Position numbers and translations under genes: made by a program. 64,000 bases of DNA from an uncultured Lentimicrobiaceae bacterium (lineage in GTDB: Bacteria > Bacteroidota > Bacteroidia > Bacteroidales > WCHB1-69): positions 73,480 to 137,479 of the forward strand of contig CAZRCF010000001.1 in NCBI GenBank assembly GCA_964598505.1, in the 5' to 3' direction. The notes below the pieces were generated by a model that saw only the letters and a program-made list of their open reading frames with translations, searched no databases and had not been told where the DNA came from. This document shows, in pieces, positions 33,935-58,319 of the stretch (positions within the stretch are counted from its first letter, which is position 1; each line of letters opens with the position of its first letter).

Positions 33935-34810
33935 CTAATCTCCTTTTGTTAATTTAACTAAATCAATAATTCTACCCACTGTTGTACTATATAAAGTATC
34001 CCATTGTACATTACCATCAATTTGTATTTGAAATTCACTGAGTTTTTTATCTAAAAGTAATTTATCATATATTTGGGGAATTACAATTCCTTTAACCTTA
34101 GTCATATCAAGATTTGATTTTTGAAATAACTTTGGGTTTCTAAATATACAATAAATGAAATTGCCGGCGCTACCCATTGAAAATACTTCTTTTCCCATAA
34201 TAAAATTATACATGCTCATTCCATTAATAAACATATCTTGTTTCGCCCATTTACCTGGAATTGAAATATTAGAAAGTTCAAGATTGTTAATATTATCTTT
34301 GAATTCAACATTAAATCTATTAACAATATCTGAAGTCTTTGAAAGTCTTTCTTTAGAATGTAATTTATCATTTAGAACTACATTTTCAATAATTTCCCGA
34401 AGCATATCCTGTGTCATTTTGGCAGCGTTGCTCCGAACTACCTGAATACCAGTATACTCAATTTCTGGATTATCTAATATCTTTCCTTTTTTAGCTTCAA
34501 GTTTATAAGCGTAGTTCTTCTTCACATCAAGAAACATTATTGCACTCATTAGCATTTCAGACTTAAAGTAAGTTGCATTCTGATCAATTGATATGTTTGA
34601 TTTAGGTAGAAAATACTCATTTAAATATTTCGTAACTGCTACATTAATATCATTTGATACTTTGTCTGCTATTACTAATTTTTCTTGGGTTGTTAAATTT
34701 TCGGAATTTTTAGCTGGGATTGCTATAAAAAGTGAGTCGGTGTCACCATAAAGGATATGTTTTAAAGCTCCTGGCTTCTCGACATCATCGTAAAAATTTT
34801 TAGAGAGCAT
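33935..34810 (-). CDS. family-B DNA polymerase, C-terminal fragment (motif C plus thumb)
   Basis: LYGDTDSLFIAIP is PolB motif C and VKKNYAYKL is the KKRY-type motif. There are no exonuclease, motif A or motif B sequences in this ORF. Confidence 0.85.
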   Translation of the reverse strand: MLSKNFYDDVEKPGALKHILYGDTDSLFIAIPAKNSENLTTQEKLVIADKVSNDINVAVTKYLNEYFLPKSNISIDQNATYFKSEMLMSAIMFLDVKKNYAYKLEAKKGKILDNPEIEYTGIQVVRSNAAKMTQDMLREIIENVVLNDKLHSKERLSKTSDIVNRFNVEFKDNINNLELSNISIPGKWAKQDMFINGMSMYNFIMGKEVFSMGSAGNFIYCIFRNPKLFQKSNLDMTKVKGIVIPQIYDKLLLDKKLSEFQIQIDGNVQWDTLYSTTVGRIIDLVKLTKGD

Positions 34811-34813
34811 TTA

Positions 34814-35206
34814 TTACTCCTTATGTGGATTTACTAATTTAACTTCTTTACCTTGATCAATTAATTCCATTTGATCTAATAATTCATCTTGAGTCATATC
34901 TGGATCATTCCACATATTTAAAAGAGGAATTCTGTATTTTTGAATTCTTTCAATTAAAGAATTTAATTCTGTTGTATTTATAAGAGTTTTATATGATCCA
35001 GAAATAAATTTTATTTTACTACCGTCTTCATTTAAAGAAATCGAAAATCCAGAAAACTCTAATCCTTTTTTGAAGAATTTTACTCTTGGTCCATATTGAA
35101 TCTTTTTATTACCTGGTTGTAAAATATGCATTTTTAAATTGACCCCAAACTTATGAGATCTTGGACCAATATTTGCCATATCCATTATTACTTCAAAATT
35201 ATCCAT
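34814..35206 (-). CDS. hypothetical protein
   Basis: 130-aa ORF with AAGGAGTG RBS. Confidence 0.55.
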   Translation of the reverse strand: MDNFEVIMDMANIGPRSHKFGVNLKMHILQPGNKKIQYGPRVKFFKKGLEFSGFSISLNEDGSKIKFISGSYKTLINTTELNSLIERIQKYRIPLLNMWNDPDMTQDELLDQMELIDQGKEVKLVNPHKE

Positions 35207-35232
35207 TTATCACTCCTTATTGATTGTTTATA

Positions 35233-35254
35233 AAATAATATTTCTATATAAAAA
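35233..35254 (-). promoter_or_regulatory. conserved promoter-like box
   Basis: AAATAATATTTCTATATAAAAA on the + strand. Confidence 0.5.
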
Positions 35255-35262
35255 ATGATGTA

Positions 35263-35295
35263 ATCCGGCAAGATCAAGTTAAGATCTTGCCGGAT
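35263..35295. terminator. Class-I conserved-stem hairpin
   Basis: ATCCGGCAAGATC AAGTTA AGATCTTGCCGGAT. The core and loop are identical to the copy at 41317-41347. Confidence 0.6.
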
Positions 35296-35305
35296 TAAAT
35301 ATCTT

Positions 35306-35458
35306 TCATAATAAGAATTTTAATGTAATAATTTCAAATCCATCATGTTCTTTATCATCGAATACACATTCATAAGGAATTTTTTGCTCTTGTAATAGCT
35401 CATTTACTTTAGCTATAATAGTAAAAATATCATCATCATGTTCGATTCTTATTTCCAT
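35306..35458 (-). CDS. hypothetical 50-aa acidic protein
   Basis: Below the track cutoff, with GAAGGAG RBS. Hand-translated as MEIRIEHDDDIFTIIAKVNELL... Confidence 0.4.
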   Translation of the reverse strand: MEIRIEHDDDIFTIIAKVNELLQEQKIPYECVFDDKEHDGFEIITLKFLL

Positions 35459-35493
35459 TATATTAATTCTCCTTCTCTTAATTTTATTTACTA

Positions 35494-35778
35494 TTATTTT
35501 AGGTCTTTACTCCAAGAGCAGGTTTCTTCATATGATTTATCTCTTGTCGATTCTACATTTTTTATTACTTCATAAAGATTCACTTGAATTCTTCCACCTA
35601 TTTCAATCATACGTTCTAAACTTGGAATTAATGATTTTGAACAACTAATCCCACTTGATCCACTACTAGATTGTGAATTTGGAACAAATAATTCAACTAA
35701 TAATGAACTTTGATTATTAATATTAATTATAATAGAATTAAGTTCACTACATAAATCTGGAACTTTTTTATTTGACAT
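35494..35778 (-). CDS. hypothetical protein
   Basis: 94-aa ORF. Confidence 0.5.
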   Translation of the reverse strand: MSNKKVPDLCSELNSIIININNQSSLLVELFVPNSQSSSGSSGISCSKSLIPSLERMIEIGGRIQVNLYEVIKNVESTRDKSYEETCSWSKDLK

Positions 35779-35988
35779 TTATTTCTTCCTTTCTACAAAA
35801 ACAATATGTCCATCGATTGTTCTTGGTTCATGTGTTGATTCAGGGAATATATTATTATTTTTCTTATTAGTTACTTTAATTTTGTAATCAACTAATTCTT
35901 TAAATGCAACTTTCAAAGGAACTATTTTTGCTTGATCTTTTCTTTTTTTATCCGCTTCATTCATACTGATTTTTTCTCCTTCTTCCAA
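35779..35988 (-). CDS. hypothetical protein
   Basis: 69-aa ORF that overlaps the rtcB 3' end by 28 nt. Confidence 0.45.
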   Translation of the reverse strand: MEEGEKISMNEADKKRKDQAKIVPLKVAFKELVDYKIKVTNKKNNNIFPESTHEPRTIDGHIVFVERKK

Positions 35989-37247
35989 GGTTTTTCTTCT
36001 GAATCATCTTTCATGTTATGAATAGGAATTATTCTATCGATAATTGTAGCTGTCGGTTCAATACATTTAATGATTAAATCTGAATCTTTATAAGCTTTCT
36101 TACACTCATCAAGTGTATTAATTCCAATAGAAGTTGAGAAAATTCCTTTTTTATCCATACCTTGTTTATATTCTTCTAAACTTAAAACTTCTTTTGCTTT
36201 AGTTCTAGACAACAATCTTCCTGCTCCATGTGGTGCTGAAAAATTCCATTCTGAATTTGATTTACCTTCACATATAAGAATACCATCTTCCATATTTAAA
36301 GGAATGATCATTTTTTCACCAATGTAAGATCTAATAGCACCTTTTCTAATTATATTATCTTTAGGATCAATATAATTGTGAACAATTTCAATAAGATCTA
36401 AAAATGAATATTTATTACCTAATTCAATAATTGAAGCTATAATATCATTCATTATATACATTCTATTTGTCATTGCATACCAGGAAGAAAATTCCATATC
36501 TTCAAGATATAGTTTTTTATTTTCTCCTTCAATATAATCAAGTTCTGTTTTTTTATGATTATTTATTTCTTGTCTTAATTTAAGTATTCTGTCATTCCAT
36601 TCTTCTTTTGAATAACATATTTTTATTTCAGATAAACCTACATTAAAATTTATTGTATCTTTTATAGAAGCTACGTTTTGCCAATATTCACAAACCTTCT
36701 TTCCAAGATTTCTAGATCCAGTATGAACAGTCACCCAGGTATCTTCAGTTGATATAGATTTCCCCATTTCTATGAAATGATTCCCAGAACCGAGAGTTCC
36801 GATACTACATTGGGCATAAAATGGATCTATTCCAATTCTTTTACAAAAAGATTTAAACCATTCATAAGACCATTTTGGATTTACATATTCCCACACTATA
36901 TCTCTTTCAAAATTGAGAACAGGTTTTTTTCTAATGTTTTGACCAAATGGAATTTTCTCTCTTATTTTCTTATCTAATTCAATTCGATCTAATTCAATTT
37001 TTCCAATATTAAATGATAACATTCCACAATTTCCATCCACACCAACTACATTAGGGCTTACTTTATCACCAACCAGCATAGTAAATCCAATAACAGATCC
37101 TGTTCCTGAGTGACAATCTGGCATAATTGATACTGGGTTTGTGAATGCTTCATGATTAATCATTTCAATAATTTGTAATCTACATTTTTCATCAACAGTA
37201 TCGATCATTATTTTAGCAGAGGTGTATTTTCCAGTAAGTTCAATCAT
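35961..37247 (-). CDS. rtcB: RtcB-family RNA 3'-phosphate ligase
   Basis: The RtcB signature strings are present: VGVDGNCGM, GSGNHFIE, HTGSRNLG and SAPHGAGR. Confidence 0.85.
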   Translation of the reverse strand: MIELTGKYTSAKIMIDTVDEKCRLQIIEMINHEAFTNPVSIMPDCHSGTGSVIGFTMLVGDKVSPNVVGVDGNCGMLSFNIGKIELDRIELDKKIREKIPFGQNIRKKPVLNFERDIVWEYVNPKWSYEWFKSFCKRIGIDPFYAQCSIGTLGSGNHFIEMGKSISTEDTWVTVHTGSRNLGKKVCEYWQNVASIKDTINFNVGLSEIKICYSKEEWNDRILKLRQEINNHKKTELDYIEGENKKLYLEDMEFSSWYAMTNRMYIMNDIIASIIELGNKYSFLDLIEIVHNYIDPKDNIIRKGAIRSYIGEKMIIPLNMEDGILICEGKSNSEWNFSAPHGAGRLLSRTKAKEVLSLEEYKQGMDKKGIFSTSIGINTLDECKKAYKDSDLIIKCIEPTATIIDRIIPIHNMKDDSEEKPWKKEKKSV

Positions 37248-38620
37248 ACTAATTCTTCTCCATCTCCAACTATTTGTTGATCACGAACATCTTGAATATC
37301 ACAATTGAATTCAGTTTTAACAACATTCTTTTTAGCTTTTACATCGGGTAAGAATAAGCTAGGAAATCCCATGTCAATTAAATCATCAACAACAGGAGCC
37401 ATTTTAATTTTACCTTCAGTTGCTGCTCGTAAGATTCTACCAATTACTTGAATTAATGATTTCTTACCAGCTAAATTTGTTCCCAATATAAGAGAACTTA
37501 ATTGTTCGAAATCAAATCCTTTTCCGGCATACGAATATGTTGCAACGACAACTTTAACAGTCGCTTTATCTAATGCATCTTTTTCATCGCCATAAAATCT
37601 TCTATGAATAATATTCTCTGCTTCTAATCCATCTGATATTAATTTTATTTGAGCTTTTGTAAAAACTAATACTATAACAGTATGTCCTTCTTCCAATCTC
37701 TTTTTAATAAGTTTTATAATGATTTTTAAGTATTCTGGACTTTTAACAATAATTGAATTATAGAATGCTTTGCGTTTAATATAATCCGGCATTTTACCAA
37801 GTACAAATGAATATTTTCCAGATAACTTACTATCATAATAATTTAAAATATAAGTTGGTTTAAGATCATAATGTTTTGTTTCGTATATAATTTCACCAAT
37901 TGTATTTTTCATAAGAACTTCAGCTGTGCCACTTTGAAAGGGTGTTGCTGATAGTCCTATAAAATTTTGAGTTCTAAACATTAATGATGCTTTCGCGTAT
38001 TTGCTCGAACTTGAGGTATTATGAACTTCGTCATAAAAGACCAATCCGAATCTTGCCGCATCCATTAATTGAAAATTTTTATGCATATCTGTTTTAATTT
38101 TAGACAATAATGTTTGAACAGTAGCTATTACAACTGGTCTATCAACTACGAAATGTTTTCCTTTAATCAATCCTATATCTTCTGGTTTAAGATCTGTAAA
38201 TTTAAGAAAACTTTCGACCCATTGATTGAGTAAATTCTCGTTATCTATAACGATACAAGTCTTTAAACCAATTTTAGAAGCAATATATGTACTTACAACA
38301 GTTTTACCAAAACCAGGTCTAGCTTTACCTATTCCATTAACCTGTTTTAAATTTTTATTATATGTATCTAATATTGTTTTAATAAATTCTACCTGTTCAT
38401 CTCTTAATGTTCCCGTGAATTTATAGAAGGTTGGACTTGGGGTTACATTCTCTTTGCTCTCAAACACTTCTACTCCAGCTGGAAAATTCTTATAGAATAA
38501 TCTAGGTAGGAAAATTTTATCTTCAGTCTCATACAAATTAATTTCATCAAAACCTTCAGCTAACTGAGAGTATTTATTGATAAAGTTTTCTAGATTTTCT
38601 TTCTTTAGATAACACCACAC
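37244..38620 (-). CDS. SF2 DEAD/DEAH-box helicase
   Basis: Walker A is GFGKTV, motif II is YDEVHN, motif III-like is SATP and motif VI-like is QVIGRILR. Confidence 0.75.
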   Translation of the reverse strand: MWCYLKKENLENFINKYSQLAEGFDEINLYETEDKIFLPRLFYKNFPAGVEVFESKENVTPSPTFYKFTGTLRDEQVEFIKTILDTYNKNLKQVNGIGKARPGFGKTVVSTYIASKIGLKTCIVIDNENLLNQWVESFLKFTDLKPEDIGLIKGKHFVVDRPVVIATVQTLLSKIKTDMHKNFQLMDAARFGLVFYDEVHNTSSSSKYAKASLMFRTQNFIGLSATPFQSGTAEVLMKNTIGEIIYETKHYDLKPTYILNYYDSKLSGKYSFVLGKMPDYIKRKAFYNSIIVKSPEYLKIIIKLIKKRLEEGHTVIVLVFTKAQIKLISDGLEAENIIHRRFYGDEKDALDKATVKVVVATYSYAGKGFDFEQLSSLILGTNLAGKKSLIQVIGRILRAATEGKIKMAPVVDDLIDMGFPSLFLPDVKAKKNVVKTEFNCDIQDVRDQQIVGDGEELV

Positions 38621-38823
38621 TAATCATTCTCCTTTATTGCTCGTAATTTACGTTCCCATATATTACCTTTGTGTCCATGAGAACTTAAGAAAGTTGCACA
38701 ATCTCTTATATATTCAATTTCTTTTTCTTGATCACCTGGTTCTGGAATAAATTCACAATATATACGAGTTATTTTGTGACCTTGTTCATCAATATGCGTT
38801 TTAGATCTCGATTCATATTTCAT
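38620..38823 (-). CDS. hypothetical protein
   Basis: 67-aa ORF. Confidence 0.5.
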   Translation of the reverse strand: MKYESRSKTHIDEQGHKITRIYCEFIPEPGDQEKEIEYIRDCATFLSSHGHKGNIWERKLRAIKEND

Positions 38824-38827
38824 ATCA

Positions 38828-39175
38828 TTAATCCCATTCTAATGTTTTAACTATTTCACTATATTTGACTTTTTTTGTAACTATTTTACAATTATCTTTA
38901 AAATTTTGAAGTTGAGCTTTCATTTCTTTTTTCAAAGCTTCTTTAAAGTCATCAGAAATATAGTCTGGAAAATTTGTAATTTGTATAAGAAGATGACAAA
39001 TTTCTCCTACTTCTGATCCTTCTAATTCTGAATATTTTGTAAGTTCATTAGCTAATTTTCTTAACTGAAAATTTATAGTTTCCTTCATGTTTATTCTCCC
39101 GCTCACTTCTGATAATTTGTTCAATTGCTCCGAGAAGAATACCATAATTTGGTATTCTTTGCTCTCCCCCACCAT
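38828..39175 (-). CDS. hypothetical protein (start uncertain; an internal MKETINF start at 39088 has a GGGAG RBS)
   Basis: 115-aa track ORF. See the frameshift and micro-ORF note for 39121-39255. Confidence 0.45.
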   Translation of the reverse strand: MVGESKEYQIMVFFSEQLNKLSEVSGRINMKETINFQLRKLANELTKYSELEGSEVGEICHLLIQITNFPDYISDDFKEALKKEMKAQLQNFKDNCKIVTKKVKYSEIVKTLEWD

Positions 39176-39257
39176 CCATCTCCCTTTTTATATATATCTG
39201 GATAAGCTTCTCGAATTGCAATTGCTGCTAATCCAAATGTGTCTTTTCTTTCCATAT

Positions 39258-40781
39258 CTATCTTCCACTCTTTATTAAATTCAATTTATCTCTAACATGT
39301 TTAATTACTTGTGATTTCTCACGACCAGAGATATGAACAATACCATCGACTTGATCTGTTATTTGATTACATTGATTCCAATTTGCATTCTTTACATAGA
39401 AATGTAAATTATAATCAGTTAATAAATATTTCTTTTGACCTTTTTGATCTATAAAGATCATAAGTATTTTATCATTAACTTCTCTTACGTCGAAAAACGT
39501 TAAGTCAGCTGTAATTTCAGTCACAAATTTATCTCCTGTTGTTATAATTGGAACTTCATATCTTGGAATTTCTGGAACAACTATTGAAGTAGTTACGGAA
39601 GCTTGTTCATCTTTTGACTTAAACATATTTAAGATTGTTCCAAAGTCTTTCTTAAACTTATCTAAATTGTCAGCATTATAATTTGCCGAACTAGGATGAA
39701 TAATAGGAATTATTGATTGATTATTACTTGTAAATACTTTTCCTGATAAACTTGCCATTCCACCTTTAAGTCCAAACCAATCAGATGCTTTAGCTCCTAA
39801 AGGAACAATAATTTTAGCTGGAAATGTTTGTTTAATTCCATCTACTAAATCTCTACATCTAGTTTTAACATCCTCTGGATTTTTGATGTCACTTTCATTT
39901 CTAGTATGACATAAAACTACATTCGTAATTACCCATTTTATGTGAGGTGGAATTAAAGCCATACGCTCTCTTAATATTTTACCAGATTTACCAACGAATG
40001 GTTTTCCAATTTCAACTTCCTCTGTTCCGGGATTTAATCCAAAGAAGATTATATCGATATTACCACCATCGTCCATATTTGTATCGAGAATTACAGTTGG
40101 TTTTCCATATAGTTCACAACCTTTACATTCTGGTCGTGAAAATATATATTGTTTTGCTTGATCACAAAATGTTTTAATTCCAGGTGGAAGTTCTCTATAA
40201 ATATCTAAAACAAAGTTATTAACTTTTGGACTGTTTAGTAAAGGTGTATCGTCTAATTTCAAAGTTGCTTTACCACTATTTATATGTTTATCCATTTTTT
40301 CGACATCATCAAAGGATATTACATTTAAATTAACTAGATCATAAAAGAAGTTAAGTTCATTTTCATTATATTCTTTATCATATAATCTTCCGAAATATTC
40401 TTCCAGAAGTTCTTTTATTTTCTGTTTATTTTTATCGGCAAGTTCTGTATTTTTGAGATACATTAATTTTTCTGGAATTGATCTTTTTGTAACTCTATTC
40501 GCATCCAATAAATAAGTTAAACTATAAATTAAATTAACTGTATCAAATTTATTAAAAAGATATAAATGATTTAAATATTTATTAATGAACCACGTTATAT
40601 GTGGTGTATTGTATGTATATAATAAAAATCGTTTAATAATATTATTATCGAATTCATATTTTTCGATAAGCCATTCTAGTTCTTCTCTTCTTCGATTATT
40701 ACTAAATAACCAATTTGTTAGACCTTTTAGACCATTTAAAAAATTTGATTTCTTCTTTGTTATATTCCCTTTTGTTGGCAC
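39258..40781 (-). CDS. protein with a C-terminal family-4 uracil-DNA glycosylase-like domain
   Basis: FFGLNPGTEEVEIGKPFVGKSGKILR (compare GEAPG..E...G.PFvG.aG.lL), VITNVVLCHTRNE and IHPSS. The N-terminal ~230 aa are unassigned. Confidence 0.6.
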   Translation of the reverse strand: MPTKGNITKKKSNFLNGLKGLTNWLFSNNRRREELEWLIEKYEFDNNIIKRFLLYTYNTPHITWFINKYLNHLYLFNKFDTVNLIYSLTYLLDANRVTKRSIPEKLMYLKNTELADKNKQKIKELLEEYFGRLYDKEYNENELNFFYDLVNLNVISFDDVEKMDKHINSGKATLKLDDTPLLNSPKVNNFVLDIYRELPPGIKTFCDQAKQYIFSRPECKGCELYGKPTVILDTNMDDGGNIDIIFFGLNPGTEEVEIGKPFVGKSGKILRERMALIPPHIKWVITNVVLCHTRNESDIKNPEDVKTRCRDLVDGIKQTFPAKIIVPLGAKASDWFGLKGGMASLSGKVFTSNNQSIIPIIHPSSANYNADNLDKFKKDFGTILNMFKSKDEQASVTTSIVVPEIPRYEVPIITTGDKFVTEITADLTFFDVREVNDKILMIFIDQKGQKKYLLTDYNLHFYVKNANWNQCNQITDQVDGIVHISGREKSQVIKHVRDKLNLIKSGR

Positions 40782-40792
40782 AATTTACTCCT

Positions 40793-41029
40793 TTAATTTA
40801 GAGTTTGGTCCTTACTTTCTTTAATCGCATCTATATTAGATACTGCGTGTGATAAATTTATAAGATGATCTACACTTACTTTTGAAATCTCTTTTGAAAT
40901 ATCTAATTCATTAACAATTTCAATTATTAATATTTCAAGTTGTAAAATTCGTCTTCCAAAAGAATATAATAATATAGCTATAATAATTATTCCTATTGCA
41001 AATATAATTGTAGCAAAAATGTTTAACAT
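40793..41029 (-). CDS. hypothetical membrane protein
   Basis: 78-aa ORF with an N-terminal TM segment. Confidence 0.5.
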   Translation of the reverse strand: MLNIFATIIFAIGIIIIAILLYSFGRRILQLEILIIEIVNELDISKEISKVSVDHLINLSHAVSNIDAIKESKDQTLN

Positions 41030-41044
41030 TCGTTTCTCTCCTTT

Positions 41045-41065
41045 ATAATATTTCTATATAAAAAT
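41045..41065 (-). promoter_or_regulatory. conserved promoter-like box
   Basis: TATAATATTTCTATATAAAAA on the + strand. Confidence 0.5.
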
Positions 41066-41075
41066 AGAAAAATAT

Positions 41076-41291
41076 TTATTTGTTTTTTAAAAATCTTTCA
41101 CATCCAGGTTGATCAAGTTCATCGAAAACATATTCATTTACAGCATATGGAGGACCATTATACCAATCTTCTTTTCTTGAATAATCATCAAGACATATAG
41201 CGGTAATAACTCTACTACCAATATCTGTGCAACGCCATTTTTCTCCAGCACATATAAAAGTTTCTCCAATTTTAAAATCAGATAGTTTCAT
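41076..41291 (-). CDS. hypothetical protein
   Basis: 71-aa ORF. Confidence 0.5.
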   Translation of the reverse strand: MKLSDFKIGETFICAGEKWRCTDIGSRVITAICLDDYSRKEDWYNGPPYAVNEYVFDELDQPGCERFLKNK

Positions 41292-41316
41292 ATTATCTCC
41301 TTATAAAAATATTTTA

Positions 41317-41347
41317 ATCGGCAAGATCAAGTTAAGATCTTGCCGAT
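41317..41347. terminator. Class-I conserved-stem hairpin
   Basis: ATCGGCAAGATC AAGTTA AGATCTTGCCGAT. Confidence 0.6.
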
Positions 41348-41366
41348 TAAAAATGAACATAGTATT

Positions 41367-42338
41367 TTAACTTAATATATCTTTAAAATATTCATCTGAA
41401 ATTGTATCAATTATAAAATCATCCCAAAACGTTCTATCGACTTTTTCCGGCAAAGAACTTTTAAATGATAACAATTCTACTTCTTCAATTAATAATTCTA
41501 ATTGTGGAGCTACTACTGTTTGATAATCAAATTTTCCTTGTTTAATATCAAGTAATAAATTAGCTTCTTTTAAAGGAAATATAATAGTGTTTTCCAAGAG
41601 AATTTGTTTTACTTGATACGCTGCTCTAAAGGCATGAGATATGGCTTTCCAATCAATTCCTTCATTAGCTGCTGCCATACGAGCTCGTTCGCCATAATTC
41701 TTGACGAAATATGAAACCACTGCACTGGCGTTTGTAATCATTTCTGTTTCACCAATCTTTCGACCACATACTTCATAATATCTTACACCATTTTCATTTG
41801 GTGGATGTTTGATTATATGATCTCCTGTTGGTAGATTATCCCAAATAGTATACATTTTTCTTACACCATTAATATAATCATCGTAAGTATATGCATCTAA
41901 AAATTTTAATACTTTTTCAGCATCGTTTAATCTCGATCCTTTGATACCATATTTAGAAGCTTGCCGCTTAGCATAACCAATGAAAGCTTTAAGATTCTTA
42001 GTATAAAATTTATCCCTATTAAGGACAATATTATCCCAAATTTGGGATTTTTCTAAAATCATATTTTCAGGGGCATGAAGCATATCAAGAGCTACAGTTT
42101 CACCTTCACATGCTAAATGAATAAAATAATGTAATGAATATTCTTCAAAATCAATATCACCTGGTGAATTTTTAAGAGTAGAATCTTTTTTAGAATCCTG
42201 TTTCATACTCTTTGGAAATTTACCAAGTAATATCTCTTTTTTAGCCGGCAAGAACACTCCTTTGAAATCTTTATTAGATTCGGGAGTGCTCGTGCCGTAT
42301 AAATGAGATCCATATATCATTTTAACTATTGTTTTCAT
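41367..42338 (-). CDS. predicted nucleotidyltransferase (Pol-beta superfamily)
   Basis: The N-terminal IYGSHLYGTSTPESNKDFKGVF matches the GS..YG....S(D/N).D pattern of the nucleotidyltransferase family often linked to RNA-repair operons. Confidence 0.5.
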   Translation of the reverse strand: MKTIVKMIYGSHLYGTSTPESNKDFKGVFLPAKKEILLGKFPKSMKQDSKKDSTLKNSPGDIDFEEYSLHYFIHLACEGETVALDMLHAPENMILEKSQIWDNIVLNRDKFYTKNLKAFIGYAKRQASKYGIKGSRLNDAEKVLKFLDAYTYDDYINGVRKMYTIWDNLPTGDHIIKHPPNENGVRYYEVCGRKIGETEMITNASAVVSYFVKNYGERARMAAANEGIDWKAISHAFRAAYQVKQILLENTIIFPLKEANLLLDIKQGKFDYQTVVAPQLELLIEEVELLSFKSSLPEKVDRTFWDDFIIDTISDEYFKDILS

Positions 42339-42352
42339 TATTATTTACTCTC

Positions 42353-42781
42353 CTAAGTCATTAAGATTTCTAAGGCACTTTCATATCGTTTTAGTAGTTT
42401 TTCAGCTCCAGGAACCATTCTTGTTGGATCAGAATTATGTTGTAAGTCTGCTATTTTAACTTGAATGGCTATTTCATTTCCTGATTCTTTTATTTTTCTT
42501 ATCCAATCTATATAAGTTATATTTTTATCCAATTTTGAAACAAGGACAACAGCATCTACTACTTCTTTTGAAAACCCCATAGCTAATAAATTTTCTGCAG
42601 TATATTTAGTATCTTCTAAAACATCATGAAGTAAAGCAACAACACCACCAACCTCAAAATATTTTCTCGGAAGTATTAGACTAACAGTAAGAGGATGGAT
42701 ATAATATTCATTACCTGATTTATCTACTTGTCCTTTATGGGCAATTTTAATAAATTCTAATGCTATATCATACATGTTCAT
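42353..42781 (-). CDS. HD-domain hydrolase, SpoT/Mesh1-like small alarmone hydrolase
   Basis: YYIHPLTV ... ALLHDVLEDT is the RelA/SpoT hydrolase HD signature. At 142 aa it is a single domain. Confidence 0.7.
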   Translation of the reverse strand: MNMYDIALEFIKIAHKGQVDKSGNEYYIHPLTVSLILPRKYFEVGGVVALLHDVLEDTKYTAENLLAMGFSKEVVDAVVLVSKLDKNITYIDWIRKIKESGNEIAIQVKIADLQHNSDPTRMVPGAEKLLKRYESALEILMT

Positions 42782-42996
42782 AATTCCTCTTTACCAGGAT
42801 ATATTTTTTTGAATGGTTCGAGTTTCCAACTATCTATTCTTTTTATAATCCCAAGATAATGAGCTTGATTTATTGTCAAAATTACTTGTATGTGTCCACC
42901 ACCTTCATTAACTGCCCATTCACTAAATCCATGTAATTTACAAAATTGTTTCCAATCAGAACAAGTGTTCATTATTTCTTGCAATGACATTATCAT
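42778..42996 (-). CDS. hypothetical protein
   Basis: 72-aa ORF with 4-nt overlaps on both sides. Confidence 0.5.
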   Translation of the reverse strand: MIMSLQEIMNTCSDWKQFCKLHGFSEWAVNEGGGHIQVILTINQAHYLGIIKRIDSWKLEPFKKIYPGKEEL

Positions 42997-44240
42997 ATAT
43001 AATCATCTCCTATTGTACTTGGTGAAAACTTTTTCTTTGATTTATTTTCTTGAGTTGATGTGATAATCATTTCACCAGTTTCAATTGCTTTATTTCTTAG
43101 ATCTTTGACTCTTTTTTCAACTTCTATATATTCATTTGATTTTGTTTCTTCAATAATAGCTTTCTTTGGTCTAGATTTATCAATTGTTTCGTCTACGAAT
43201 TTCTTTAACATATTATTAATTGTTGGACTTGGTTTTTCATGTTCTTCTGAAACTTCTTCATGAGGAATTTCATATTTAACTGCTTCAATCTTATCATCAA
43301 ATAATTCTTTCTCAATTAAAGCAATTCCAAGATTATCATATATAAATACTTTTCGTTCAACAATCGAAGGAATACCAAAGAACATTTTATTGATAATCTT
43401 TATTGTTGGTTTATAATTACTATTATAATCTCCACCAATGTTCGGATCATCAACAAATCTATTAATTGAATAATATAATCCTATTAAAGGTTTATTACCA
43501 CAAGTGGCTCTTAGATCTCTTAGATTTTTATAATTGTTCTTTTGAGCAAATTTCATTTCAGTAATCTCATCATCAATTAATCGAAGAATTAAATAATCTC
43601 CACTTTCTTCTCCAAATTGATCAATTTCATCCTCTTCTGTTTCAGAATTAATAATTTCATTTGTAGTTTCTGGTTCTTGAGATGATAATTGTTCTTCTTT
43701 TGAAGTTATTTCATCGAAAACTTTTTGTTCTATTTCTTCTTTAACAACTTCTGTTAATTCTATTTCCGGAAGTAATGATTTAGCAGGATAATTAGAATTA
43801 TCATGATGTTTACCTTTTTGATCATACATAGAGATTTGAAAAATAGGATCAGAAGATTTATTATGTTTCTTTATCCAAGATTTAATAAGTTCTATATCCT
43901 TCATAGTTTTTTCTAATTCAAGATTAAATATTTCGTTTTCTGTTCCAATATACTTATCTTCTGCTAATTTATCTACAATTTTTTGATAGTTTTCTTTAAA
44001 TTGCTCTTCTTTATCGGCAAGAGCTTTTATTGGATCTATAATTTTAACGGTTTCAGGATTTTTATTTTCAAAATCCAAAGCTAGTGGGATACAATCAAGG
44101 CAGAACATTCCGCTTTCGACATATTGCTTTGTTTGATCCCCGTTAAGAATTCGACTTTCAAAGATTCTAACTTTATTAGCATCCTCGAAATCAATACCGC
44201 ATCCATCGCAGCTATATAGTGGCTTATATTTTAATACCAT
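42993..44240 (-). CDS. hypothetical protein with an N-terminal zinc ribbon and an acidic linker
   Basis: CDGCG ... CLDC, 415 aa. Confidence 0.55.
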   Translation of the reverse strand: MVLKYKPLYSCDGCGIDFEDANKVRIFESRILNGDQTKQYVESGMFCLDCIPLALDFENKNPETVKIIDPIKALADKEEQFKENYQKIVDKLAEDKYIGTENEIFNLELEKTMKDIELIKSWIKKHNKSSDPIFQISMYDQKGKHHDNSNYPAKSLLPEIELTEVVKEEIEQKVFDEITSKEEQLSSQEPETTNEIINSETEEDEIDQFGEESGDYLILRLIDDEITEMKFAQKNNYKNLRDLRATCGNKPLIGLYYSINRFVDDPNIGGDYNSNYKPTIKIINKMFFGIPSIVERKVFIYDNLGIALIEKELFDDKIEAVKYEIPHEEVSEEHEKPSPTINNMLKKFVDETIDKSRPKKAIIEETKSNEYIEVEKRVKDLRNKAIETGEMIITSTQENKSKKKFSPSTIGDDYI

Positions 44241-44250
44241 TTTTATTCTC

Positions 44251-44442
44251 CTAATGTAGTTTTTTAACTAATGCTTTTTTAATATCTTTTACTTTGATAT
44301 CTTTTGACATAAATTTAAATAATTCTTGAAAAATATTATGAAGTTCTCTAGCTTTGCAACTTATTGTAAATCCTTTTGAACTAGCTGTGATTGTGGCTCC
44401 CTCTAATTGTAACATCATTTTTATTCTCCTTTCGAATTTCAA
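44251..44442 (-). CDS. hypothetical protein
   Basis: 63-aa ORF with AAAGGAGA RBS. Confidence 0.5.
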   Translation of the reverse strand: MKFERRIKMMLQLEGATITASSKGFTISCKARELHNIFQELFKFMSKDIKVKDIKKALVKKLH

Positions 44443-44460
44443 AAATATAGTTATTTAATT

Positions 44461-44480
44461 ATATAATTTCTATATGAAAA
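44461..44480 (-). promoter_or_regulatory. conserved promoter-like box
   Basis: ATATAATTTCTATATGAAAA on the + strand, immediately downstream (minus sense) of terminator 44492-44525. Confidence 0.55.
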
Positions 44481-44491
44481 TTGTTAATAAT

Positions 44492-44525
44492 AAAAAATGC
44501 TTGGGAGGTTTTACGCCTCCCAAGC
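44492..44525 (-). terminator. rho-independent terminator (class II, unique stem)
   Basis: On the minus strand, GCTTGGGAGGCGTAAAACCTCCCAAGC is followed by ATTTTTT. Confidence 0.7.
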
Positions 44526-44549
44526 GGGGTTATTCATATTTAGTTCATG

Positions 44550-44753
44550 TCATACTAAAGAATTTATGTATTCTTCAATATTAGGTGCATTGTCAGGATC
44601 TTTAATAGTTAACAATGTGAATTCAAGAAACTGTTTTACAGTTAATTTTTCGCTATGTTCGTCTGATAATTGTTCAATCATTTCAAGCATTGTATCTCCA
44701 CAATCCTCATCAATTTCAAAGATCTCTTCAACTATTTCTTCAAATGTCCTCAT
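44550..44753 (-). CDS. hypothetical acidic protein
   Basis: 67-aa ORF with AGGAGG RBS. Confidence 0.5.
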   Translation of the reverse strand: MRTFEEIVEEIFEIDEDCGDTMLEMIEQLSDEHSEKLTVKQFLEFTLLTIKDPDNAPNIEEYINSLV

Positions 44754-44804
44754 ACTTCCTCCTTTTTAGTTTGTGTTATTTTCGGCTACCAATGTCGTTC
44801 ATCA

Positions 44805-45785: not shown

Positions 45786-45848
45786 TAGATATTTTTCCTT
45801 TCAATTTAAAATAAAGATTAAAATATAGTATATATTTTAATTTATAAT

Positions 45849-45936: not shown

Positions 45937-46737
45937 TTATACCTCGAATGTGGAATAACCACTACTATTGAATGTTATAATCTCGGGAGGAATTTCAGAT
46001 GATACTAAAATTCTCTGAATATTACAGAAAAGTAGAGTTGCCGATAAACTATTAATACTCTGACTTTGATCTCCAAAAAACGCACAACTATCGGTTGGTG
46101 CTTCTTCCTCTATTGTTGGAAACATTTTCATAAAGTTAATTTTTTTACGCTTCTTGAGTTGCTTGAATAAAGCGACTGAATCTTCTTGATTCTCATTGGA
46201 TAAGTTATTTATTACAAACTCATTAAATCCATATGATAAAGTAACAATTTGTCCATTATATAAGAGATTACCGCTATCAATATAAACAACTGGACAATGA
46301 AAGTCCTTATTCAATCCCTTTGCTAGTCTATTTATTAGTTGTCTTGATTTATTATTATCAACACATCCTAATATAAACACTAATGTCTCTGTCCGCATAT
46401 CATAATCAGGATTATGAAATATTAATCTAGATATATCATTTTTCGATCTCATCCTATATTTAATTGCTTCCATGTTTTTAAAATTATAACAGTATTTAGT
46501 GACCAAGGATAATGCTTTACCTTTACCAATATCCCATTCATTAAAATTCTGTCTTAATATATTTCTTTGTTCTACCACATCATCATCTATTATTTTATAG
46601 ATAACTTCGACTTCTTCTGGTAGTCTCAATTTAATGTTATTCAATAATTTAGAGAGTAGTGGAACTAACCAAGAGCCAGTTCCACCACATCCCACTTGTA
46701 ATATAACTATTTTCCTACAGTGCTGGATTAAGTTCAT
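45937..46737 (-). CDS. ThiF/E1-like adenylyltransferase
   Basis: VILQVGCGGTGSWLVP (nucleotide-binding loop), IIDDDVVEQRNILRQNF and GCVDNNKSRQLIN. The ATG at 46737 has GGAG 9 nt upstream. The track start at 46767 is the alternative. Confidence 0.75.
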   Translation of the reverse strand: MNLIQHCRKIVILQVGCGGTGSWLVPLLSKLLNNIKLRLPEEVEVIYKIIDDDVVEQRNILRQNFNEWDIGKGKALSLVTKYCYNFKNMEAIKYRMRSKNDISRLIFHNPDYDMRTETLVFILGCVDNNKSRQLINRLAKGLNKDFHCPVVYIDSGNLLYNGQIVTLSYGFNEFVINNLSNENQEDSVALFKQLKKRKKINFMKMFPTIEEEAPTDSCAFFGDQSQSINSLSATLLFCNIQRILVSSEIPPEIITFNSSGYSTFEV

Positions 46738-54449: not shown

Positions 54450-55175
54450 TTATTTCAAATGCTGTTGAGCTGTAAGTTCAAATCCTTTTGTGTATGCAAA
54501 ATTACATGCATAAAGGAATGCTTCTCGTTGCCAACCAATAAAATCATAAAAATACGTACCATTTCTTGGATCTTTGACAGTGAATCTAATTTTCTCTTCA
54601 TTTTTTTCAATTGTACAAACTGGTCTTTCTTGTTGCCAATTTGCACCTGGAATCTGTTTGAATAATTGTTCAAGACAAGTTGTTGATAATCTTGGGGAAG
54701 TATACGCATTAAAAGCTGTAGCTGGATAAACTGTTCCGGCAACGAGACGTTTTAAATTCTCAAGATATACAACATTTCCTTGAATTGAATTGTTTGTTAG
54801 ATTAAGAAATGCAACTCTCATGTTTCCAAAATCAAGATTAAACGAAAGAATTACAAAATGTGCCTCAGTTTGTGCTGGTTGTTGTCTTGGATTCATATAA
54901 AATTTAGGATTAATTAACCAGAATAAATCAACAATTGCATATTTCTGTTTAGCTGGTGATGGTGGAACAAATTCTGAAACTGGAGCTGAAAATGGATCTG
55001 TTACAATTCCACCATTTCCAGTTGCGAAACTATCCGCACCAGTTGAGAAACTATCTGGACCAGGAACACCAGTTGTACCAGCATCTGTTACTAAACTTTC
55101 AAATGTTTGATTTCCTGTTTGCATAAAGCCAACAGGAGGAGTTCCAAAAGGAACACCATTTTCTTCATTACCCAT
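54450..55175 (-). CDS. hypothetical protein (Gly/Pro/Thr-rich N-terminus)
   Basis: 241-aa ORF with AAGGAGG RBS. Confidence 0.55.
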   Translation of the reverse strand: MGNEENGVPFGTPPVGFMQTGNQTFESLVTDAGTTGVPGPDSFSTGADSFATGNGGIVTDPFSAPVSEFVPPSPAKQKYAIVDLFWLINPKFYMNPRQQPAQTEAHFVILSFNLDFGNMRVAFLNLTNNSIQGNVVYLENLKRLVAGTVYPATAFNAYTSPRLSTTCLEQLFKQIPGANWQQERPVCTIEKNEEKIRFTVKDPRNGTYFYDFIGWQREAFLYACNFAYTKGFELTAQQHLK

Positions 55176-55209
55176 ATTTGCTGCCTCCTTGTATTTTCTT
55201 TTATATTTT

Positions 55210-55710
55210 TTATTTTTCTGGTGGAGTAAATAACCTTAATTCAAATTTTGTTGGTTGTATATTATATGAAGATTTCTCATAAACAAGAATATCAGCTAAA
55301 AATTCTGTAGATAAACTTATAAGTATATCTGCCTCACGGCGAGTTATTGGGCATGACGATTTTTGAGATCTTAAAGCTTTAATAGCTCTGTCTTCTGCGT
55401 TATCACGACCATATGCTTTAATCGGTTGATCTAGAAAACTACACAGAGAAATACCTCTTGAATACTTATTTGATTTGATATCATAAAGAACACAAATTGT
55501 AATTCTAGGATGTTTATTTGCATCTCGATAATGATAAAATCTTCTCTTAATTGTATTACAATTTGAATAAAGAAATTCTTTATTCTTTTTAAATTTAATT
55601 TGATCTTCTAAATTAGAATCTGTTTGATTCATTGCTTTGAGTAATTCAATTGCTTCTTCTGATAGTTTATATTTTACTGGTCTATAAGTTACTGTTGTAC
55701 TCTTAAACAT
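55210..55710 (-). CDS. hypothetical protein
   Basis: 166-aa ORF with AGGAAAGGAA RBS. Confidence 0.55.
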   Translation of the reverse strand: MFKSTTVTYRPVKYKLSEEAIELLKAMNQTDSNLEDQIKFKKNKEFLYSNCNTIKRRFYHYRDANKHPRITICVLYDIKSNKYSRGISLCSFLDQPIKAYGRDNAEDRAIKALRSQKSSCPITRREADILISLSTEFLADILVYEKSSYNIQPTKFELRLFTPPEK

Positions 55711-55727
55711 ATTTCCTTTCCTCTTTT

Positions 55728-56072
55728 TTATAGTTCTGTTATTATAATATCTAATTTATTCATTAACCATTTAGCTACAATATGACGATGACAAAAATTC
55801 AACGATGCTTCATAACATAATAGAATAGAATCTTCTCCAAGTTCTTGATAAGTTTTTGCCGCATCCAAATTGTTTAAAATCTCATTATGATATCTAATTG
55901 TATACTCTTCTTTTGTAATTTTTTTTGATTTATAATCCATAACTAAGTCCCAACTTGGACAAAGTGGTTTATAAATTCTAACTTTGAATCCCTCTGGGGG
56001 TTTTCTCGAAATTGATACTAATTTTGGATCATCTTTTACAATTTTTGGAGATGCGAAATATGAAGTCTTCAT
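55728..56072 (-). CDS. DUF488-like protein
   Basis: VSISRKPP...YKPLCPSWDLVMDYK...ILLCYE...FCHRHIVAKWL fits the DUF488 pattern as I recall it. Confidence 0.5.
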   Translation of the reverse strand: MKTSYFASPKIVKDDPKLVSISRKPPEGFKVRIYKPLCPSWDLVMDYKSKKITKEEYTIRYHNEILNNLDAAKTYQELGEDSILLCYEASLNFCHRHIVAKWLMNKLDIIITEL

Positions 56073-56225
56073 AGGGCATTTATTCTCCTCTTCTAATTAA
56101 TTCTTTTTGTGCTTTGATTTTTGTGGGTTCATCTGGAGGACTTGTTGCTAGAAATTGAATATACCAATATGGTATATCTTCCATTGGAATGAGTTTACCT
56201 TTTATGTAATACCTACTACAATCCA

Positions 56226-58319
56226 TTATTTGCCTCCTTTTAAAGATTCTAAATACATTTCAGCAATGAGCTGGGCTGCTTTCAAACTTAGACGTCCTTG
56301 GGTAGTTATACTCTTAGCTAATTGTTTGTTACTAAATCTATAACTTTGTTGACCAAATAATCCATATAACGTATTCATTGTGACCTTGATTGCTTTTTGC
56401 CGCATCTCAAAAAATGAATAATCATTAGTTCCTTTTTTAAATTGATCTCTTTCTTTCTCATAATTATTTCTAAGGTCTTTAAGATTTTTTAAGAAATCAA
56501 TAAATAATCCTTTTTTAGTTTCATGTTTTACAAACAAGCAACCAGATAAAGATAATATTAAATTATTTGTTTTCAAATAGTTCTCAAAAGACTTTACAGG
56601 AATTTTTATTATCTTAATTGTTGGTTTTAAAATATCTTCAATTATATATAGAAAATCTGGATCTGTCGGCAAAGAATCATTTATAAGATACTCATTACAA
56701 AAACTATTGTATTCTTTACTGTTCGGATGTACATCATCAAATAAATCAATCATTGGTAAGAAATATCTTCTTATAATCATGTAATCTTCAATCTCTTGTT
56801 GATTAAATAATTGAGATAATGATTTCTTATGATCTTCTATTTTCTTCAATAAATATGCTATAATTAAATAATAATTTTGAACGTATTCACCTTTGTTTTG
56901 TGGCTTTAATTTATCTACATATTTGACAGTCATTTCATATAAAGAAAGATATATACTCTGTGGTATCGGCATTTTAGCTATTAGAGCTTTATCTATTGCT
57001 GCTAAAAACTTATATGTTAACGGGTCGATAATTTTTCCAAAGAATGTATCAAACGATATATTTAATTGAGTAATCATTGATGGATATAATGAACTAGCAT
57101 CCAAATCTACTATGATACCATCTTTACTTGTTAAAATTTGTGCTCGTGATTGTTTCACATAAGCACCTGGAAAATGACCAGTAATTGAACGATAAGTTTG
57201 TTGACTTATTTCTTTTATGGTCTTTTTCATTTGTTTTGGGATATAAAGAGTTGCCATTTCATCATCTGAAATAGATACGGTCGATTCATCTAATATTCCA
57301 AATCTTGTAAATTTACCTTCTTCATTTAATTTGTAATTAACATAAGTATCAAATAAGATTGACGAACCTCTTAAAGAAGCAGTAAATGGTGTTTTCATTA
57401 ATCTTCTTAAGAGATTGTAAGATTCAATATGTTTTAATTTTGAATTCATTCTAACACATAAAGCTACGTCAATTATATTATATAGAAGAAAATTAACAGG
57501 ATCTTTTTCATAGAAAGTATCAAGAGTCATTCCCTCTGATTTATATTCTTTTTTCCTTAAATCTAATTCTGCATCAGATACAAAATCTAATGCATAACTA
57601 CTCTGTTTTGACCCCATATTTAAACCACCGTCGTCTCTTGGTTTGTACGCGTATAAGAGATCTAAAACAGGGTATTCTGGAATCTTAATTAAGAATTCAT
57701 TATTGAATTTTTCAACTTTTATTTTACCGAATTGTGATAAGATCTTGCCGATTTCAACTTCATTCTTATTTAATATATTACTTAATCTAAAATAAATATA
57801 AGGCAAATCGAATCTATCAGTTGCCCAACCAGAAAGAACACTTGGATCAATTTCTTTAATTTTATTCCAACATGCTTTAATTAAATCTGTTTCATTATTA
57901 AAAACATATATTTCCAAACTCTCACCATCAACAATATATTTATCATCGGCAAGATCTTTTGTAAAAGCTTGTATAAGATTCGGAATTTCTTCTTTTTCTG
58001 GAAATTTTTGAATATTACTATGTCCTAATAAATAATAAGATCTAAATATTTTATCAAATGTGTTATAAATTGTGATTGCATTTATTGGAAATTTAGCTAT
58101 TTCTGGTTTTGGAAATATTCCAGCATTGCTAGTGTATACTTCAATATCCAAAAATAAAATATTCAGTTGTTGATCTTTATCGATCACATCTGTTCTATTT
58201 TTTAAATAATTTTGTATACTATAATATTGTTGATAGTCTAAATCCAATCCATAAACTTGATACGGGTTTATATTCATATCTTTAAACTCTTGAAAAGAAA
58301 AAGATTGCAAAGCTTTCAC
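56226..58319 (-). CDS. family-B DNA polymerase, N-terminal fragment (3'-5' exonuclease plus palm motifs A and B)
   Basis: Exo I is FLDIEVY, Exo II is DRFDLPYIYFR and Exo III is LLYNIIDVA. Motif A is DLDASSLYPSMI and motif B is KVTMNTLYGLFG. The ORF ends before motif C. The GTG start is uncertain. Confidence 0.9.
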   Translation of the reverse strand: MKALQSFSFQEFKDMNINPYQVYGLDLDYQQYYSIQNYLKNRTDVIDKDQQLNILFLDIEVYTSNAGIFPKPEIAKFPINAITIYNTFDKIFRSYYLLGHSNIQKFPEKEEIPNLIQAFTKDLADDKYIVDGESLEIYVFNNETDLIKACWNKIKEIDPSVLSGWATDRFDLPYIYFRLSNILNKNEVEIGKILSQFGKIKVEKFNNEFLIKIPEYPVLDLLYAYKPRDDGGLNMGSKQSSYALDFVSDAELDLRKKEYKSEGMTLDTFYEKDPVNFLLYNIIDVALCVRMNSKLKHIESYNLLRRLMKTPFTASLRGSSILFDTYVNYKLNEEGKFTRFGILDESTVSISDDEMATLYIPKQMKKTIKEISQQTYRSITGHFPGAYVKQSRAQILTSKDGIIVDLDASSLYPSMITQLNISFDTFFGKIIDPLTYKFLAAIDKALIAKMPIPQSIYLSLYEMTVKYVDKLKPQNKGEYVQNYYLIIAYLLKKIEDHKKSLSQLFNQQEIEDYMIIRRYFLPMIDLFDDVHPNSKEYNSFCNEYLINDSLPTDPDFLYIIEDILKPTIKIIKIPVKSFENYLKTNNLILSLSGCLFVKHETKKGLFIDFLKNLKDLRNNYEKERDQFKKGTNDYSFFEMRQKAIKVTMNTLYGLFGQQSYRFSNKQLAKSITTQGRLSLKAAQLIAEMYLESLKGGK

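Follow-up and report, generated by a model that had tools for sequence, protein, structure and literature searches.

A family-B DNA polymerase encoded by two distant genes, a probable obligate two-subunit replicase of a large clade of uncultivated phages

The 64-kb stretch of contig CAZRCF010000001.1 analyzed here (the window) carries two minus-strand genes that each encode one part of a family-B DNA polymerase (PolB), polB-N for the larger part and polB-C for the smaller. We consider it likely, at a probability of roughly 0.8, that their products form a phage replicase working as an obligate two-subunit family-B polymerase, and that this arrangement is ancient and shared by a large clade of uncultivated phages. 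The two chains most likely act as an obligate non-covalent heterodimer with a composite active site. To the fuller picture, in which a large undescribed clade of mostly jumbo phages has a heterodimeric PolB broken in the palm between motifs B and C at a point matching none described, with a permuted ancestral gene order and later drift over 1-21 kb and swaps of order, we give about even odds. An earlier note, made from the letters of the window, had proposed a family-B polymerase in two genes about 21 kb apart, and both open reading frames (ORFs) are in place and have Pfam PolB matches. The two genes, with lengths in amino acids (aa), are as follows.

56226..58310, minus strand: polB-N, 694 aa, with the N-terminal domain, 3'-5' exonuclease, palm motif A, fingers and motif B.
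33935..34810, minus strand: polB-C, 291 aa, with motif C, KKxY and the thumb.

PolB-N matches DNA_pol_B_exo1 (PF03104, E 1.8e-15) and positions 106-200 of the DNA_pol_B profile (PF00136, E 6.4e-17), and PolB-C matches positions 223-356 of the latter profile (E 2.2e-9). The exonuclease residues of PolB-N are D55/E57 (Exo I), F167/D168 (Exo II) and Y277/D281 (Exo III), followed by motif A with D404 and Y409 and motif B with K642, N646, Y649 and G650. Motif C of PolB-C (YGDTDS) occupies residues 21-26 (Y21, D23, T24, D25, S26), and its KKNY motif residues 97-100 (K97, K98, Y100). The features of family-B membership, namely Exo I-III, motifs A, B and C, KKxY and the replicative PolB fold (N-terminal, exonuclease, palm, fingers and thumb domains), are present in the pair. 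The best GenBank phage matches of PolB-N are ~27% identical over 62-64% of the protein, those of PolB-C are weak (22-25% identity, to unsplit PolBs), and phmmer of PolB-C against PDB sequences gave no match at E<=0.01.

The start of polB-N calls for a correction. Its ORF extends to a GTG at 58319 (697 aa), which sits within the GGAGG Shine-Dalgarno sequence, while the TTG at 58310 has normal spacing from that sequence and is likely the start. The 694-aa product is present in public gene calls (P0105, 100% identity), and an exact look-up of the 697-aa GTG-start product in public records found no match. The view that each half has its own start and ribosome-binding site (RBS) holds as it stood for polB-C, whose start is preceded by AAGGAG and lies 3 nt past the stop of an upstream 130-aa ORF, whereas for polB-N the start is better placed at the TTG.

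The break falls in the palm. PolB-N holds Exo I-III and motifs A and B as the earlier note described, although it stops 41 residues, not ~35, after the end of motif B at G653, within the helix that follows this motif; PolB-C opens ~20 residues before motif C, as had been predicted. In the alignment to RB69 gp43 that had been proposed, phmmer pairs residues 637-690 of PolB-N with residues 555-608. Residues Y21-D25 of PolB-C presumably equal RB69 Y619-D623, a match of the motif to the published RB69 numbering rather than an alignment. An alignment of eight unsplit PolBs with six split pairs places the break in a variable palm loop between the post-motif-B helix and the motif C strand; all six paired genomes agree on where the N-half ends and where the C-half begins. 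The junction sequences are ...ESLKGGK, followed by the stop, and MLSKNFYDDVEKPGALKHILYGDTDS, with the C-half starting MLSKNFYDDVE; compared with unsplit PolBs, the C-halves of the split clade have ~9 extra N-terminal residues, including a conserved peptide, MLxxxFYxxVE. Intein blocks are absent from the junction in the window halves and from the same junction in every lineage examined, and no Cys/Ser/Thr +1 residue follows an HN there. The proposal that no intein marks the junction is borne out by this absence and by the mere ~9 residues in excess of unsplit PolBs.

For a structural view, the two window proteins were joined end to end as an artificial fusion and modeled with AlphaFold2 from a 45-row alignment balanced at 22 + 22 rows. 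The model reached a pLDDT of 85.7 and a pTM of 0.73, with low confidence only at 691-694 (the tail of the N-half) and 790-820, and its best PDB matches were to RB69 gp43, over ~1030-1085 aligned columns (the whole length), at E 4.6e-28 and TM 0.55-0.66. The model shows the joined halves to make up one complete polymerase, the association of separate chains being beyond the reach of a fusion model.

Both halves are widely conserved as separate proteins. For the C-half, 104 relatives were found, down to 33% identity and nearly all 285-300 aa long, with ~15 of the 104 reaching 440-500 aa and carrying an intein Pfam domain; for the N-half, lengths of 690-705 aa prevail almost throughout the best 120 relatives, which reach down to 37% identity, and the longer ones examined (P0117 and P0151, within a range of 1016-1076 aa) consist of the N-half plus an intein in motif A, P0117 having the same end point. 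A C-half profile scored against 1.84 billion cluster representatives retrieved 106 clusters (50% identity) at E<=1e-30, every one of them stand-alone (280-340 aa), intein-bearing (440-700 aa) or a shorter partial call. Full-length PolBs first appeared in that search at <=84 bits, compared with 100-430 bits for the stand-alone family, and no close unsplit relative was found in the 5.8 billion proteins searched. The comparison of related phage genomes for an intact or differently split polymerase, which the earlier note had suggested, gave the same split throughout; far from being peculiar to the visible genome, the split is ancestral to a very large clade. Across 23 diverse sequences of each half, the key residues of Exo I-III, motifs A, B and C and KKxY never vary, and the ratio of nonsynonymous to synonymous substitution rates (dN/dS, NG86) is 0.09-0.13 for the N-half against three relatives and, for the C-half, 0.29 against a 97% identical relative and 0.09 against a distant one. 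Because the catalytic residues are invariant and dN/dS is 0.09-0.29, neither half is a pseudogene or remnant.

The lineage has no close relative among 50,697 GenBank phage records, where its major head protein also has no match. In IMG/VR, the C-half profile mostly picked up the generic YGDTDS pattern, with three true relatives only, and the single C-half protein picked up none, while a clade-specific N-half segment (alignment A5) recovered relatives. Full-text literature searches, in which subscription journals are poorly covered, found no description of the clade or of the break point. Relatives bear database names such as 'hypothetical protein', '3'-5' exonuclease' and 'DNA polymerase domain-containing protein, partial'.

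Inteins occur in these relatives at sites other than the break. Whole inteins lie in motif A (DLDA/S...AHN/S, with Ser1 and Ser+1; the slash marks the insertion boundary) or in motif C (YGD/S...VHN/TDS), and the complete intein-bearing sequences examined keep the same ends as the window proteins. Motif A inteins are found in P0117 and P0151, and motif C inteins in P0021, P0030, P0036, P0225 and L008 (8861..10864); they are mini-inteins or carry an endonuclease domain, some genomes have two inteins in addition to the split, and the window genes have none. In contig L004 (95..2148), an HNH gene (95..640) precedes an N-half ORF that starts within the motif A intein (MPPDEKIF...), the contig ending upstream, an arrangement that may represent a 'fractured gene' with a split intein and hence a three-piece polymerase. 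Two further proteins recombine the modules: P0328 (618 aa) has an N-terminal region that, on reading its sequence, looks like a primase zinc finger and Toprim, fused to a diverged PolB C-half, and P0319 (745 aa) has a polymerase domain that is continuous over the break point and no exonuclease domain.

Both halves lie on a single ENA contig, k141_123413 (ERZ27262927; 205,069 bp), at 92360-94444 and 115860-116735, on the same strand and with a gap of 21,415 bp from polB-N to polB-C. Between them are ~36 called protein genes and a tRNA-Gln, including ssb, a ThiF-like gene, a UDG-family gene, an SNF2/ResIII helicase gene and rtcB; the earlier note had counted about 40 genes, a figure that is slightly high, and had rightly named ssb and rtcB among them. 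The exact N-half was found in three contigs of the same arrangement, including ones of 205 kb and 257 kb, with mostly the same neighbour genes, while a JGI contig with an identical C-half begins between the two genes and hence covers only one of the halves.

Gene arrangements were read in more than 20 contigs, and those tabulated below are all same-strand; N→C means polB-N upstream of polB-C, identities are to the window unless otherwise said, and L numbers are our handles for contigs.

Window genome: N→C, gap 21.4 kb.
SESG01025921.1: 59-61% identity, N→C, 17.8 kb.
L004: 77% identity, N→C, 8.3 kb.
L003: 58-60% identity, N→C, 6.5 kb.
Ga0453684_0000144 (314.8 kb): 48-49% identity, C→N, 13.6 kb.
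NODE_5 (89 kb): 46-47% identity, C→N, 15.0 kb.
L006: 31-40% identity, C→N, 9.5 kb.
L153 / L155 / L156: 42-58% identity to the nearest of several split-clade queries, C→N, 2.2 / 2.1 / 0.9 kb.
L007, L008/L091/L092, L129, L134, L137, L139, L142 and L143: C→N, abutting, -29 to +9 nt.

In the abutting set, L007 and L008 are 31-40% identical to the window and the others 42-49% identical to the N-half of L008. Every lineage has its own stop codon for the N-half and its own start for the C-half, both halves are on the same contig wherever contigs are long enough to test this, and no adjacent N→C pair was seen among the contigs examined. A neighbor-joining (NJ) tree of N-halves (520 columns, rooted on eight unsplit PolBs, 200 bootstraps) recovered the split clade as monophyletic in 200/200 replicates, the window-like N→C lineages as a nested crown in 194/200, and the crown plus intermediates, to the exclusion of the C→N-adjacent lineages, in 164/200. 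Parsimony makes a polB-C that immediately precedes polB-N the ancestral order and the 21-kb N→C layout a derived one; duplication of an intact gene in tandem, with the two outer halves then lost, would yield precisely the C→N order, a route offered as inference only. Two blocks recur across lineages and switch their relative order, one of polB-N, a ~240-aa gene and ssb, the other of the UDG-like gene, the SNF2/ResIII helicase gene and polB-C; in the window, further cassettes have been inserted, among them the ThiF-containing set and the RlaP, HD, RtcB and DUF488 genes.

Taken as a mechanism, the 694-aa chain would supply the N-terminal and exonuclease domains, the palm with motif A and the fingers with motif B, and the 291-aa chain the palm motif C hairpin, the KKxY primer-binding motif and the thumb, the two assembling non-covalently. 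In the palm, the motif C hairpin contributed by the small chain is expected to complete the sheet beside the motif A strand of the large one, so that, judging from the architecture of RB69 gp43 and the model, the two metal-binding aspartate motifs would come from different polypeptides, and the MLxxxFYxxVE peptide is the probable docking handle of the small chain. Because it lies in a variable surface loop, the cut would be structurally tolerated. A single event at the root of a large clade of uncultivated myovirus-like phages, most of them jumbo, would have produced the split. In early-branching lineages polB-C immediately precedes polB-N, with translation of the pair probably coupled; the genes may later have drifted apart through insertions and rearrangement, leading to the N→C order at 6.5-21 kb in the window lineage. 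The 21-kb gap could then be seen as an expanded replication module (ssb, UDG-like, SNF2 helicase) that took up extra cassettes.

Among other explanations, the two genes could be decaying remnants of a disrupted polymerase gene, replication being left to another phage polymerase or to a host enzyme. This would find room in the ~136 kb of the 205-kb contig outside inspection and a parallel in the second, minimal PolIII-alpha-like enzyme of one jumbo-phage group (PMC7824862), yet more than 100 clusters at 50% identity keep both halves with invariant catalytic residues and the dN/dS values given above, both ORFs are intact with good ribosome-binding sites, and a close unsplit relative was missing from all 5.8 billion proteins; we regard remnants as very improbable, the explanation being effectively refuted, in our reading, by conservation. 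The earlier note had named a complete PolB elsewhere as fatal to its proposal, and no second PolB-like sequence lies within the 64-kb window; a second polymerase elsewhere, if present, would still not make the halves remnants. A chimeric or misjoined contig as the source of the 21-kb separation is extremely unlikely, even with metagenomic data and a JGI contig that fails to span both halves, given that the three contigs with the exact N-half agree on most neighbours, that independent relatives have the halves 6.5, 8.3 and 17.8 kb apart on the same strand between the same bracketing genes, and that an N-half stop and a C-half start occur in every lineage. The possibility of an assembly artefact, which the earlier note had raised against itself, is answered by these contigs and by related arrangements in many independent assemblies.

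Post-expression joining of the halves, whether by a split intein (protein trans-splicing) or by a split intron (RNA trans-splicing), has a footing in the inteins that invade motifs A and C in relatives and in known split-intein PolBs (PMC4104785, PMC6892783, PMC10189870), but intein fragments would not fit into halves that sum to 985 aa with ~9 residues in excess, Cys/Ser/Thr +1 after HN is lacking, the inteins of relatives are whole and at other sites, and a search of the window with Rfam intron families brought none up to its gathering score, so that we hold it to be very unlikely. Excision of the 21 kb as an element that fuses the halves, as with the sigK skin and nifD elements, was considered owing to the same-strand arrangement, nothing more specific speaking for it. 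It stands next to no chance, as no repeat of >=9 nt, direct or inverted, is common to the two junctions, the halves end or begin with stop or start codons of their own, core replication genes (ssb, helicase) lie in between, the C→N order of relatives cannot be fused correctly by excision, and no recombinase family is among the Pfam hits listed for interval genes. Finally, the proteins may have diverged to separate jobs, with PolB-N, for example, a stand-alone exonuclease or DNA-binding factor and PolB-C serving another partner. P0328 and P0319 do illustrate re-use of the modules, yet the motifs that the two chains hold between them, A and B on PolB-N, C and KKxY on PolB-C, are all invariant, which is sensible only as one active site, the halves share a contig where this is testable, and the genes overlap or abut in basal lineages; we consider such a divergence unlikely.

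Several points weigh against the two-subunit replicase and its history as set out here. The case as a whole is built on sequence comparison and a fusion model, and a promoter role for the motif described below is a prediction. With a fusion in place of a two-chain model, the interface and the role of FYxxVE are inferred. The sequence read covers the window and L005, while contig positions 1-82359 and 150670-205069 (~136 of 205 kb) fall outside this coverage and might encode a second polymerase. Most crown-clade contigs show polB-C only as 'not within about 9 kb', and the NJ tree has saturated outgroup distances, with only 82% support for the node that excludes the C→N-adjacent lineages.

By analogy, the window enzyme would work like known split PolBs, through fragment complementation of a modular PolB, and would in that sense be of a known kind; it differs from them in its break point, in its far larger clade and in its permuted and variable gene order. 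Split T4-like 43A/43B proteins co-purify and are active (PMC2988022), and Pfu polymerase split at the fingertip and rebuilt from separate fragments shows wild-type behaviour (PMC3061061). The T4-like break is likewise at the fingertip before motif B, with the cistrons 2 bp to 3 kb apart in N→C order (PMC3061061); our translation of the Aeromonas phage 25 genes agrees with this and with PMC2988022, as 43A (498 aa) stops short of motif B, within the fingers, and 43B, which carries motif B, starts ...NRKILINSLYG. Like gp43A/gp43B of phages 25, 44RR, 31, 65 and 133 (Aeromonas, Acinetobacter), the window pair is an intein-free two-cistron phage PolB with motifs A and C on different chains and with mobile endonuclease genes associated. 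Unlike them, it breaks 41 residues after motif B, in the palm, and keeps motif B on the N-half, and its clade has C→N or N→C order with gaps up to 21 kb, in place of N→C order at <=3 kb. The gp43A/gp43B split is limited to a few T4-like phages. The window clade is only ~27% identical to T4-like gp43; membership of the T4-like (Straboviridae) gp43 lineage, a fingertip break and short N→C spacing are all missing from the window. The parallel with gp43A/gp43B drawn in the earlier note is reduced to an analogy, the phage 25 break being before motif B and that of the window after it.

Among archaea, a split PolB of Methanobacterium thermoautotrophicum was reportedly described by Kelman et al. in 1999. 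Reckoning on Pfu, we take the Methanobacterium break to lie just past motif C, which would place both catalytic aspartate motifs on the large subunit. The two Methanobacterium genes are 85 kb apart and the palm break is ~83 residues C-terminal of Pfu 467/468 (PMC3061061), a split that has been ascribed to erratic intein excision (PMC4104785). The window pair resembles the Methanobacteriales PolB in its two distant, intein-free genes and its palm break, and there both subunits are needed (PMC3061061; PMC4104785); by the published map it would depart from that archaeal cellular enzyme in its break site, motif C of the window pair being on the small subunit and the break ~20 aa before it. The distance between the genes is exceeded by the 85 kb in Methanobacterium (PMC3061061) and has another precedent in the non-adjacent genes of Nanoarchaeum (PMC4104785). 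Split-intein PolBs are known from Nanoarchaeum equitans (PMC4104785), MIJ3 (PMC6892783) and the sheep-gut metagenome PolB16 OarG (PMC10189870); they too have two genes, non-adjacent in N. equitans and in a jumbo-phage context in the 'fractured gene' of Pseudomonas MIJ3/PA5oct, but their halves are ligated by trans-splicing, whereas the window junction has no intein sequence. The PolB of Rhodothermus phage RM378 is similar as a phage polymerase made as separate pieces, and group 2.2 jumbo phages have a split minimal PolIII-alpha from 'distantly located genes' (PMC7824862), which belongs, unlike the window enzyme, to a different polymerase family.

Immediately downstream of polB-C stands an insertion with the following features.

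33113..33930, minus strand: insertion of ~820 bp immediately 3' of polB-C, absent from L157.
33278..33931, minus strand: free-standing endonuclease gene, a candidate for the HNH-AP2 type, within the insertion.
33107..33256, minus strand: 49-aa ORF, mostly within the insertion.

The endonuclease gene matches HNH_3 (E 2.8e-10, 40.1 bits against a cut-off of 24.8), and its AP2 match, at 30.4 bits, misses the gathering score (33.3). In the relative with the 97% identical C-half, L157, a 62-aa gene comes straight after polB-C, and DNA alignment brings out the ~820-bp insertion in the window. A paralogue of the endonuclease gene, 54% identical, lies at 25517..26185 of the window, and no HNH-AP2 gene is called in L157 at either window position. 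Next to a conserved gene, this is a recent mobile insertion with no connection to the ancient split. The earlier note had set the endonuclease gene right 3' of the C-half, which agrees with the HNH_3 match, while the AP2 assignment falls below the gathering score and the gene has no part in the origin of the split; as a candidate for that origin it was rejected, the ~820-bp insertion being absent in L157. Besides, the RBS/start cassette AAAGGAGATTAGA[AG]TG recurs in three copies, one at each gene junction (window 33089..33954, compared with L157 2650..2700), and these repeats look as if genes had been slotted into a conserved RBS/start junction.

The transcription units of the two polymerase genes are preceded by similar elements.

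58337..58398, minus strand: terminator-like hairpin (58398-58375), then tttcaTATAGAAAT (TATAGAAAT at 58353-58345), directly upstream of polB-N.
56080..56226, minus strand: 48-aa ORF whose ATG overlaps the polB-N stop (TAATG), called in the ENA record too.
35235..35297, minus strand: terminator-like 15-bp hairpin (35297-35261), then TATAGAAAT at 35248-35240, upstream of the 130-aa ORF.
34814..35206, minus strand: 130-aa ORF, its stop 3 nt before the polB-C start, present in L157 (97% relative) and absent from L003 and L004.
4855, 16038, 24261, 30068, 35248, 41058, 44474, 45863, 52146, 58353, 60858 and 61435: intergenic copies of tttcaTATAGAAAT(a/t)tat.

The motif TATAGAAAT occurs in 14 copies in the window against 3.6 expected, 12 of the 14 being intergenic, 8-156 nt upstream of the next annotated gene; 11 copies are 8-70 nt before the start of a protein gene, and the copy at 52146 is ~14 nt before tRNA-Gln. 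Copies are often downstream of a terminator hairpin. The tttcaTATAGAAAT motif is probably a phage-specific promoter class, and the 130-aa ORF and polB-C are probably co-transcribed. Because the same promoter-like motif precedes both transcription units, its distribution suggests that the two halves are co-expressed and co-regulated through a shared motif class.

The remaining members of the recurring blocks in the window are these.

54450..55175, minus strand: the ~240-aa gene (241 aa), with three extra small genes between it and polB-N.
53404..54186, minus strand: ssb, 260 aa, with two OB-fold matches (SSB_1 at 34-124, SSB at 139-234).
39258..40781, minus strand: UDG-family gene, in the block before polB-C in L003, L004, L078 and L079.
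37244..38620, minus strand: SNF2/ResIII helicase gene, in the block before polB-C in L003, L004, L078 and L079.

No lineage examined lacks a gene for 231-242 aa after polB-N, and in four relatives it lies directly downstream (L003 4230..4925, L004 2165..2881, L081 5070..5798, L082 5094..5801); the ~240-aa genes, likened by size and position only and having no Pfam match, would fit a sliding clamp. The SSB measures 123-139 aa beside polB-N in L003, L081 and L082 and 217 aa in L004. When ten further large window ORFs were searched against Pfam, only SSB matched. The interval also includes a DUF488-N3a gene (55728..56072) and a ThiF (E1-like) gene (45937..46767), the latter in a run of genes with no Pfam match, and both are in the 59-61% relative (L079, L084). 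A Ro60/TROVE-like vWA protein gene (59229..60842) adjoins tRNA-Met (59148..59222), and an RtcB RNA ligase gene lies at 35961..37247; the 314.8-kb relative (L078) has both the Ro60/TROVE-like and the RtcB gene, and the two may form an RNA repair or quality-control set. At the scale of the window, the strand switches at ~22.7 kb, where GC skew flips, from plus-strand genes (1..22663), including a tail sheath (19719..21755), a weak major head match (11294..12886) and a DnaB-like helicase gene (5147..7048), to the minus-strand replication and auxiliary block (22858..64000).

Naturally split PolBs have so far been treated as rare curiosities of a few T4-like phages, one archaeal order and one nanoarchaeon, whereas here the split would define a whole diverse phage clade and have stayed stable through deep divergence. 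The palm of a replicative polymerase could then be assembled from two chains indefinitely, with motif A and motif C apart, and in this clade nature would have kept a fragment-complementing replicative polymerase stable over evolution, with many natural sequence pairs on offer for split-polymerase engineering. Split polB would also be a clean marker to classify uncultivated jumbo phages, and a warning for annotation, as 'partial PolB' genes of ~290 and ~700 aa would be halves of one enzyme rather than fragments or pseudogenes. The changing gene order may also serve as a test case of how linkage is lost, in large phage genomes, between genes whose products are obligate partners.

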